39,803 bases of DNA, taken from Escherichia phage HC13. Made by a program: the position numbers and the translations under genes. Shown here one piece after another: positions 5,713 to 36,855 of this stretch (within the stretch, counting starts at the first letter, position 1; each line of letters opens with the position of its first letter). The notes under the pieces are model-generated. The model had not been told where the DNA came from. It searched no databases and saw only the letters and a list, made by a program, of their open reading frames with translations. The stretch is from sequence record OL362276.1, one strand, 5' to 3'.

Positions 5713-5928
5713 ATGAAATTTGCACACAAGCATACTGGCGTTAATGGTGGGACTCAAATCGTGACCGTAACAGAACACAACGGCAAGGGTATGGTGAAGA
5801 CCACGGTCATACCTACCGAGATGTCCAAGCAGCTTAACATCCCGTTCAAGACTCTTGTATATCTGGTCGAGTCCAGCCACGAGAAGTACCTGAAGGACGC
5901 AGTGTCCAAGCTGGAGCAGGCCAAATGA
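5713..5928 (+). CDS. Hypothetical protein (71 aa)
   Basis: SD AAGGAGAG upstream of ATG. No recognisable motif. Confidence 0.5.
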   Translation: MKFAHKHTGVNGGTQIVTVTEHNGKGMVKTTVIPTEMSKQLNIPFKTLVYLVESSHEKYLKDAVSKLEQAK

Positions 5929-6003: not shown

Positions 6004-6027
6004 CCTAAACTATCACTATAGGATTAG
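6004..6027 (+). promoter_or_regulatory. Phage RNAP promoter (TAAACTATCACTATAGG, +1 about 6021)
   Basis: Promoter-family match. Position equals T7 phi1.1. Confidence 0.75.
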
Positions 6028-6070
6028 ACTCAAGGTCATGACTCAAAGTCGTGGCCTTCATGATTAACCC
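6022..6070 (+). promoter_or_regulatory. Putative RNase III processing hairpin (R1.1-like)
   Basis: Conserved UAGACUCAAGGUCAU ... GUGGCCUUCAUGAUUAA. Upper stem AAGGUCAU pairs with GUGGCCUU; internal loop and lower stem as in the hairpins at 13150 and 36801. Confidence 0.45.
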
Positions 6071-6099
6071 TAAATAAACACTACTGGAGATTTAACCGT

Positions 6100-10988: not shown

Positions 10989-11204
10989 ATGATTAAACTT
11001 ATTGAATTTCTTGGTCGTCTGGTGGTGCGTGGTTATCGTCGTGCTGCGGTACTGGAACGAAAGGTAGAAAAGAAGACTGCTGACGGTGCGGCTGATGCTG
11101 CTGCGCTGGCTGACAAGCTGACCATCGCGTCACTGGAAGCTGGAATGAAGGCACGCCAAGCTGACACCAAAGCTGACCAGTTGGCTCAGTTCTTCAAAGA
11201 CTAA
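10989..11204 (+). CDS. Hypothetical protein (71 aa)
   Basis: Good SD. Hydrophobic/basic N-terminus, Ala-rich, C-terminal FFKD. No function inferred. Confidence 0.5.
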   Translation: MIKLIEFLGRLVVRGYRRAAVLERKVEKKTADGAADAAALADKLTIASLEAGMKARQADTKADQLAQFFKD

Positions 11205-11223
11205 ACTATCACCTTAGGGATTG
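11200..11223 (+). promoter_or_regulatory. Variant phage RNAP promoter (TAAACTATCACCTTAGGGA)
   Basis: Family member with two changes in the -5/-4 region. Lies directly upstream of gene 4. Confidence 0.5.
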
Positions 11224-11269
11224 GACCATGAGTCCTTTCCCTTTGTTCGCATTTGTGCTTAAGGAGTGA

Positions 11270-12984: not shown

Positions 12985-13149
12985 TTGCTAAGAAAACTTA
13001 AAGCTCGCTACCATCGGTTCATGTACAAATGGTGGAGCGATGAAGCAACCTGCCTGTCTAACATTCTGGGAGACCAGCGGTTCAACTCTGAGGCATGGAA
13101 GAAAGCTAACCGGAAGTTCATGTATCACTTCTTGCGTACAGACTTCTAG
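12985..13149 (+). CDS. Small basic hypothetical protein (54 aa from TTG)
   Basis: Frame of track ORF 12952..13149. I prefer the TTG at 12985, which has SD AAGGAGGAG four nt upstream. Start codon uncertain. Confidence 0.35.
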
Positions 13150-13195
13150 GTCTAGACTCAAGGTCATTCACAGCGAGTGGCCTTTATGATTAGAC
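13150..13195 (+). promoter_or_regulatory. Putative RNase III processing hairpin (R4.7-like)
   Basis: Lower stem GUCUAG pairs with UUAGAC, internal loop, upper stem AAGGUCAU pairs with GUGGCCUU, 9-nt loop. Same family as 6022 and 36801. Confidence 0.45.
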
Positions 13196-13212
13196 TAAAG
13201 CGGAGGATTAAC

Positions 13213-13644
13213 ATGAGGACTTGCAGTAGATGTGGCTCCACAAAGGAGTCAACTGAGTTCAGGAAGATAAATGGGTGGTGCATATCCTGTGTTCGTGAGG
13301 ATAATAGGCTGCGATACCACCGAAACAAAGGTACAGATGCTGGTGAGGCGCATCGCCTATCTGCCCGTAAGTCTTGGCTTAAGAAAGCCTATGGTCTCAC
13401 ACTTGAGGAATATGACACTATGTTCGATAGTCAAAAGGGCAGATGCGCTATATGCTCAGACATTATCTTCAAGCATGGGTCTATTGAGAGTAAGAATAAT
13501 GTAGCCCACGTTGACCATTGCCATGACTCAGGTATTGTTAGGGGATTGCTATGTGGTACATGTAATAGCGCACTTGGTAAGTTCGGTGACAAGGTAGCCG
13601 TGCTTAGGGCTGCTATAGCGTACTTGGAGAAATATAATGTTTAA
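13213..13644 (+). CDS. HNH homing endonuclease, endonuclease VII-like His-Me finger
   Basis: GRCAICSD...VAHVDHCHDSGIVRGLLCGTCNSALG is the endonuclease-VII-type signature. N-terminal CSRCG...CISC zinc ribbon. SD GGAGGA before the ATG at 13213 (the track ORF starts upstream at 13177). AT-rich, with rare AGA/AGG/ATA codons. Confidence 0.8.
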   Translation: MRTCSRCGSTKESTEFRKINGWCISCVREDNRLRYHRNKGTDAGEAHRLSARKSWLKKAYGLTLEEYDTMFDSQKGRCAICSDIIFKHGSIESKNNVAHVDHCHDSGIVRGLLCGTCNSALGKFGDKVAVLRAAIAYLEKYNV

Positions 13645-17662: not shown

Positions 17663-17686
17663 ACTAAACTATCACTATAGGGACTT
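17663..17686 (+). promoter_or_regulatory. Phage RNAP promoter (TAAACTATCACTATAGGGA, +1 about 17680)
   Basis: Consensus-class match. Position equals T7 phi6.5. Confidence 0.8.
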
Positions 17687-17746
17687 TATGACCTAAGATA
17701 TGACTATAAGATATACTTTAGTCTTAACTTAAAGAGGAGATTCAAG

Positions 17747-26248: not shown

Positions 26249-26272
26249 CTTATTGAAGGGCCTATAGATTTA

Positions 26273-26296
26273 CCTTAACTATCACTATAGGGACTA
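26273..26296 (+). promoter_or_regulatory. Phage RNAP promoter (TTAACTATCACTATAGGGA, +1 about 26290)
   Basis: Promoter-family match. Position equals T7 phi13. Flanked by the inverted repeat GGGCCTATAG / CTATAGGCCC. Confidence 0.8.
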
Positions 26297-26324
26297 TAGG
26301 CCCTTAAGGTCATAAGGAGACTTT

Positions 26325-36800: not shown

Positions 36801-36855
36801 GTGTTAGACTCAAGGTCATTACTGTATGTAGTGGCCTTTATGGTTAACACTAACT
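36801..36855 (+). promoter_or_regulatory. Putative RNase III processing hairpin (R18.5-like)
   Basis: GUGUUAGAC...AAGGUCAU / GUGGCCUU...GGUUAACAC. Same upper stem as 6022 and 13150; lower stem differs but still pairs (covariation). Confidence 0.45.

Follow-up and report, generated by a model that had tools for sequence, protein, structure and literature searches.

The locus at positions 6021-6070 of the Escherichia phage HC13 sequence (OL362276.1) raises the question of what role is played by a hairpin that has close relatives at other intergenic positions of the 39,803-nt stretch analysed here, which we call the window. A preliminary description had assigned three elements (6022-6070, 13150-13195, and 36801-36855) to a single hairpin family located where phage T7 has its RNase III sites R1.1, R4.7, and R18.5. 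Our study leads to the interpretation that the three elements are, very probably, T7-type RNase III processing signals on the rightward polycistronic transcripts of the phage. The kind of element is already known: the RNase III processing sites of T7, reportedly described by Dunn and Studier in 1983, have been textbook material since that year, T7 R1.1 RNA is a model substrate of the Nicholson laboratory, and the hairpins considered here are new members of a known family.

Sequence and fold of the three hairpins

The preliminary description had attributed to the three elements a common pair of blocks, TAGACTCAAGGTCAT ... GTGGCCTT(C/T)ATG(A/G)TTA, and an upper-stem core, AAGGTCAT/GTGGCCTT, identical in all of them, and both statements agree with our comparison. 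The first 8 upper-stem pairs are the same across the 6022, 13150, and 36801 copies, and the 16-mer GTGGCCTTYATGRTTA occurs exactly three times in the window, on the + strand only; shuffled sequence yielded a mean of 0.64 matches with 3 mismatches tolerated. Each element is built from a 7-bp lower stem, an internal loop of 4x5 nt in which ACUC faces (C/U)AUG(A/G), and an upper stem of 10-11 bp. The R1.1-like hairpin occupies 6021-6070 on the + strand (covariance-model hit of 63.2 bits, the element being in the training set of the model), with its lower stem at 6021-6027 / 6064-6070, its loop strands ACUC at 6028-6031 and CAUGA at 6059-6063, and its upper stem at 6032-6042 / 6048-6058; in read-through transcripts the lower stem reaches 6019/6072. 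The R4.7-like hairpin lies at 13149-13196 (+ strand; 62.2 bits, also in the training set), with its lower stem at 13149-13155 / 13190-13196, ACUC at 13156-13159, UAUGA at 13185-13189, and its upper stem at 13160-13169 / 13175-13184. The R18.5-like hairpin spans 36801-36850 (+ strand; 64.2 bits, likewise in the training set), and its parts are a lower stem at 36801-36807 / 36844-36850, ACUC at 36808-36811, UAUGG at 36839-36843, and an upper stem at 36812-36822 / 36828-36838.

The lower stems had been said to differ in sequence and still pair, which proved correct. In the 13150 element, GUCUAG (13150-13155) pairs with UUAGAC (13190-13195); in the 36801 element, GUGUUAG (36801-36807) pairs with UUAACAC (36844-36850); and in the 6022 element, GGAUUAG (6021-6027) pairs with UUAACCC (6064-6070) with a single A.C mismatch. 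That mismatch is the exception among the 12 cells at the four varying positions, the other 11 of which are standard pairs; with 0.375 per cell taken as the chance rate of pairing, our own arithmetic puts the probability of this outcome at about 2e-4. RNA folding, which had been proposed as a check, gave minimum free energies (MFE) of -20.2, -19.4, and -23.4 kcal/mol for the 6022, 13150, and 36801 elements, respectively, with z values against dinucleotide shuffles of -4.0, -4.6, and -4.3. The stem/bubble/stem organization that had been ascribed to the family is what the comparative model shows, but it does not appear as such in the MFE structures, where ViennaRNA puts a few pairs inside the internal loop.

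Phage relationships, gene context, and promoters

By sequence, the window is a K1F-like Kayfunavirus, a relative of T7 in the subfamily Studiervirinae. A 601-bp stretch around the finding has matches in 485 phage records, of which the best are Kayfunavirus genomes (96.7% identity for LM33_P1 and 95.5% for K1F), and the right end of the window is 99.7% identical to Escherichia phage 6925. The long ORFs of the window lie on the + strand without exception, and the hairpins are intergenic and syntenic with the T7 sites. As had been proposed, the 6022 hairpin stands before gene 1.1, since the ORF that follows it encodes gp1.1 (Pfam Phage_1_1, E 6e-11), and the 36801 hairpin stands before 18.5, between gp18 (the small terminase) and an Rz-like gp18.5. 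The placement of the 13150 hairpin between genes 4 and 5 holds in that the gene 4/4.3 block precedes it and gene 5 lies beyond it, and its first base is also the final base of the stop codon in a gp4.3-family ORF; the next gene, however, is not a 4.7 homologue. That gene, at 13213-13644 on the + strand, encodes endonuclease VII (PF02945, E 2.7e-24; phrog_2633). It is covered in just 4 of 191 related records, for which reason we regard it as probably a mobile or homing-type insertion; in the others the match ends just beyond the hairpin and gene 5 comes next. The endonuclease VII gene seemingly uses the ribosome-binding site of gene 5, whose start codon it overlaps.

Promoters were located with a position weight matrix (PWM) built from 11 annotated EcoDS1 promoters, which identified 12 strong promoters in the window. 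The equivalent of phi1.1 is a phage RNA polymerase promoter at 6004-6026 on the + strand (CCTAAACTATCACTATAGGATTA; 31.2 bits), orthologues of which are annotated in the ASO2B and EcoDS1 records. Its +1, G6021, is the first base of the hairpin lower stem, a coincidence absent from the preliminary description, and transcripts initiated there open with the 5' arm. The A.C mismatch of the 6022 element may be the cost of this double constraint, because its 5' arm is also positions +1 to +7 of the promoter. In T7, R1.1 is flanked by the promoters phi1.1A and phi1.1B, whereas the window has a single one here; the stretch 6064-6086 (TTAACCCTAAATAAACACTACTGG), considered as a promoter of the phi1.1B type, receives no score of 12 bits or more from the EcoDS1 matrix. 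The phi6.5 promoter (17663-17685, + strand; 30.5 bits) is followed 6 nt on by a degenerate promoter-like copy, CCTAAGATATGACTATAAGATAT (17.5 bits), both within 17663-17714.

A further difference from T7 concerns the gp0.7 kinase, which has no counterpart in the window phage: no homologue was found in PHROG scans of the early ORFs (400-2700), and the kinases of T7 and GW1, used as tblastn queries, had no significant match in the window. Among Kayfunaviruses, GW1 and SFP20 do carry the kinase. The T7 gp0.7 kinase phosphorylates and stimulates RNase III (PMC4858673), and processing efficiency in the window phage may differ from that in T7 because the kinase is missing.

Homology with the T7 sites and predicted cleavage positions

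On the evidence of alignment, the three hairpins and the T7 RNase III sites are homologues, both by sequence and by structure. The T7 sequence (NC_001604) was read at the cleavage coordinates that we take to be those of Dunn and Studier, position 5887 for R1.1 among them, and was cross-checked by motif; neither NC_001604 nor V01146 carries RNase III features. Seven of the ten cleavage positions so taken fall in the same motif, as in R1.1, ACTCAAGGTCATTCGCAAGAGTGGCCTTTA[T]GATTG. The T7 sites R0.5, R1.1, R4.7, and R18.5 align column for column with the window hairpins, with which they have in common the blocks ACUCAAGGUC / GGCCUUUAUGAUU, and when four window elements and seven T7 sites are aligned, 11 columns are invariant and a single pairing scheme fits all rows. 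The closest likeness is that of the 13150 element, which equals T7 R1.1 over 14 + 17 nt (ACTCAAGGTCATTC and GAGTGGCCTTTATGATT), that is, over the entire internal loop and upper stem; all 10 bp of its upper stem are those of R1.1, and the first 8 bp are the same as in R1.1 in all three elements. The elements also have the proximal and distal boxes of a proven substrate and are free of inhibitory pairs, as judged by identity with R1.1 only. T7 R1.1 is cleaved efficiently at one phosphodiester (PMC4858673). The apical loops and lower stems of the T7 sites are unlike those of the window hairpins in sequence.

In the alignment, the T7 cleavage coordinates share a column with the cuts that we predict in the window; these cuts would lie after U6061, U13187, and U36841, in the 3' strand of the internal loop. 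From the predicted cut to the next start codon there are 38 nt (U6061), 25 nt (U13187), and 60 nt (U36841), and the last of these distances equals the 60 nt that separate T7 R18.5 from the start codon of 18.5.

RNase III of E. coli has other substrates, and these include the lambda N leader and the rnc leader. Such substrates have no sequence in common with the phage elements, and many are cut on both strands; the phage hairpins, unlike them, form a multi-copy paralogous set with conserved sequence. What they have in common is form, as the rRNA precursor stems are likewise double helices of about two turns in which loops or bulges set the cleavage pattern (PMC1540722, PMC3867540).

A covariance model of the family in other phages

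A covariance model of 59 positions and 18 pairs (model R1) was trained on four window elements and seven T7 sites. With filters off, it gives six hits on the + strand of the window and nothing credible on the - strand; four of the six are training sequences whose scores are partly built in, the independent ones being 692-758 and 1972-2032. In T7 the model also recovers R6.5, which was outside the training set. A more demanding comparison is offered by T3 (NC_003298) and phiYeO3-12 (NC_001271), neither of which contributed to the training and whose GenBank records each label ten stem-loops as RNase III sites. The model produces 8 hits in T3 and 8 in phiYeO3-12, all 16 of them annotated "RNase III recognition site", with no extras; the annotated sites that it misses are R3.8 and R13. 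Across 13 genomes it produces 81 hits, every one on the transcribed (+) strand. These results provide evidence that the model separates annotated RNase III sites from background.

T3 and phiYeO3-12 belong to another genus, Teetrevirus, with another promoter consensus than the window, and still have the arrangement nearest to it: the phi1.1 promoter overlaps the start of the R1.1 stem-loop, R3.8 begins at a promoter +1, and R13 and R6.5 enclose promoters. R4.7 of T3 lies directly before gene 5, as it does in most Kayfunaviruses.

Covariation and structure at the RNA level

The covariation that had been claimed for the family is strong in both helices when 70 distinct sequences are considered, representing Teseptimavirus, Teetrevirus, Przondovirus, and Kayfunavirus. 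In the model-fitted alignment of these sequences, 93.2% of the cells are standard pairs, compared with 28-50% when the partners are slid by 1-3 columns; changes on both sides occur in 14 of the 18 pairs, and the observed score was reached by none of 500 shuffles. Since a model-fitted alignment leans to the structure of its model, 65 sequences were also aligned with MAFFT alone and passed to RNAalifold, which again predicted the lower and upper stems with the 4x5 loop between them and showed compensatory changes in 13 of 17 pairs. A scan of IMG/VR for the exact motif gave 109 stretches on contigs of about 40 kb, amounting to 45 distinct elements, in which pairing at the seven lower-stem positions ranges from 73 to 100%. 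Where these positions vary, 2 to 6 base combinations occur, and pairing drops from 0.77 to 0.51 on partner shuffling. The A.C mismatch at 6023/6068 is also found in 10 of these 45 elements.

Strand asymmetry points in the same direction. Conserved G.U pairs give the + strand RNA the more stable fold, by 2.6-11 kcal/mol relative to the complement in five of six window elements, which argues for an RNA rather than a DNA structure. Structure, homology, covariation, strand, and synteny are all direct observations. The conservation has a second component: in the 70 sequences, hardly any variation is seen in the internal loop or in the three upper-stem pairs next to it (A-U, G-C, G-C), a tighter constraint than pairing demands. 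E. coli RNase III, by contrast, is reported to lack any positive sequence determinant that is conserved. A second sequence-specific reader, be it a phage or host protein or the ribosome, could also use the hairpins, but this seems unlikely to us.

Further hairpins in the window

The count of three elements given in the preliminary description is too low, as the window holds at least six canonical members of the family, plus R3.8-like and R13-like hairpins. The additional canonical members lie in the early region on the + strand. The one at 692-758 occupies the R0.3 position, has a longer upper stem, and scores 35.3 bits (E 3e-6) outside the training set; its fold has -25.6 kcal/mol (z -5.2), and an ocr-like gene lies downstream at 784. 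The member at 1615-1673, of the ACAGG/CCUGA subtype like T7 R1, scores 56.2 bits, being in the training set (z -2.8), and precedes an ORF at 1687. The third, at 1972-2032 (33.9 bits, E 7e-6, outside the training set; z -3.6), sits between an ORF end at 1914 and an ORF start at about 2088, and has orthologues in six other Kayfunavirus genomes. These early-region members fall into two sequence subtypes, ACUACAGG/CCUGACUGAU (like T7 R1) and ACGAGAGG/CCUCAAAGAU.

The two non-canonical hairpins are also on the + strand. The R3.8-like hairpin at 11216-11242 begins at about the +1 of the promoter at 11200-11222 before gene 4 and is followed by the block UUCCCUUUGUUCGCAU, as at T7 R3.8; the covariance model does not detect it, and the R3.8 sites of T7 and T3 are missed likewise. 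The R13-like hairpin at 26256-26305 is a perfect 12-bp stem (26256-26267 / 26294-26305; z -2.7) that surrounds most of the phi13 promoter (26273-26295). The annotated R13 of T3 also lies around phi13, but its sequence does not align with the 12-bp stem of the window, so the two are analogous and not demonstrably homologous.

At other positions the search had a different outcome. T7 sites also include R0.3, R0.5, R1, and R1.3, whereas the window has no canonical hit before gene 1 or gene 1.3. An R1-like site before gene 1 was rejected (z -0.14 against shuffles, no model hit); the motif CTCAAGGTC, the 5' motif of the family, comes there right after the promoter at 2683-2705 with no matching 3' half in 2683-2775, and this region may be a decayed remnant of R1. 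An R6.5-like site around the promoter at 17663-17685 was also rejected (z -0.38, no model hit), in contrast to T7, T3, phiYeO3-12, and K11, where the model does find R6.5. No convincing equivalent of R1.3 was identified in the window by the model or by folding.

Alternative explanations

Special attention has been given to the possibility that the hairpins are rho-independent terminators or attenuators of transcription, since the record of ASO2B (MZ726794, vB_EcoA_ASO2B) labels the orthologue of the 6022 element, at 233-269, as 'rho-independent terminator; discovered using WebGeSTer', and a stable upper stem followed by a short U-containing stretch, CCUUUAU, has some resemblance to one. A consensus scan, however, detects nothing terminator-like at the three positions; in none of the tails after the hairpins (CAUGAUUAA, UAUGAUUAG, and UAUGGUUAA) does the stem lead into 5 or more consecutive U, and the tails do not qualify as those of terminators. 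A terminator 40 nt past the +1 of phi1.1 would defeat that promoter, and it would need neither a covarying lower stem nor a conserved internal loop, while the homologues in T7, T3, and phiYeO3-12 are on record as RNase III sites. We consider it highly improbable that the hairpins terminate transcription, and the ASO2B label is probably a misannotated RNase III site. Still less credence, and in practice next to none, is due to a role at the DNA level, as cruciforms, recombination or replication signals, homing-endonuclease targets, or functionless relics of duplication. It is true that the 6022 element lies in the region of the T7/T3 primary replication origin (a rep_origin is annotated in T3) and that the endonuclease VII gene adjoins the 13150 element, but all 81 model hits are oriented with transcription, the G.U pairs become C.A on the other strand, where folding of the complement is poorer by 2.6-11 kcal/mol for 5 of 6 elements, and compensatory changes, G-U intermediates among them, are the mark of an RNA helix. 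Conservation across four genera speaks against functionless relics in particular.

It is also conceivable that the hairpins act as RNA without being cleaved, as binding sites of RNase III or another protein, as structural barriers, or as translational operators for the downstream genes. RNase III can regulate by binding, and bulge-helix-bulge variants of R1.1 are bound and left uncut (PMC1540722, PMC3867540); the loop and the adjoining upper-stem pairs are also more conserved in the 70 sequences than base pairing would need, which would be compatible with such a role. The elements nevertheless keep the exact loop and upper stem of the efficiently cleaved T7 R1.1 (PMC4858673), and they lie 25-60 nt before start codons, with the ribosome-binding sites free in the predicted folds. 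An action without cleavage is for these reasons very unlikely in our judgement.

Proposed mechanism

Under the interpretation that the elements are RNase III processing signals, a transcribed element would fold into two coaxial helices of about two helical turns, split by the asymmetric 4x5-nt internal loop, and the hairpin would be bound by the RNase III of the host. With the helix interrupted by the loop, the enzyme would cleave a single phosphodiester, in the 3' strand of the loop. The upstream mRNA would be left with a stable terminal hairpin and so be shielded from 3' exonucleases, and the downstream mRNA (genes 1.1-1.3, endonuclease VII with gene 5, or 18.5-19) would acquire a defined 5' end 25-60 nt before a start codon. 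Both effects are in line with earlier work, according to which internal loops limit RNase III to one phosphodiester and the 3' hairpin that is left protects the RNA from exonucleases (PMC1540722, PMC3867540). At 6022, promoter-initiated and read-through transcripts would be trimmed to one common 5' end, as follows from a hairpin that starts at the +1 of phi1.1. Cleavage by RNase III, the exact cut sites, and the stabilising effect are what we infer from the homology with T7. Among the points that count against the interpretation are the missing gp0.7 kinase, the conserved A.C mismatch of the 6022 element, and the fact that its lower-stem sequence is also constrained by the promoter.

Annotation status and significance

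Annotation of RNase III sites is absent from the Kayfunavirus records of K1F, EcoDS1, SH3, GW1, 6925, vB_EcoP-R1, ST56, SFP20, and ASO2B. A comparison of the window with Rfam 15 gave 0 matches at gathering thresholds and, at E values up to 1, a chance mir-872 match elsewhere in the window, and none of the papers searched joins 'RNase III' with 'Kayfunavirus'.

The value of the result lies chiefly in annotation, and covariance model R1 could serve to annotate T7-like genomes. Phages of the K1F type are a popular chassis for therapy and diagnostics, and the correct placement of processing sites is useful for the engineering of their genomes, for the modelling of gene expression, and for the choice of neutral insertion sites. 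To the biology of RNase III these hairpins add nothing new. If a second reader did recognize them, they would do more than mark a cut and could replace gp0.7-stimulated processing in the Kayfunaviruses that have no kinase. The missing gp0.7 is the one point at which processing in the window phage might differ quantitatively from that in T7.
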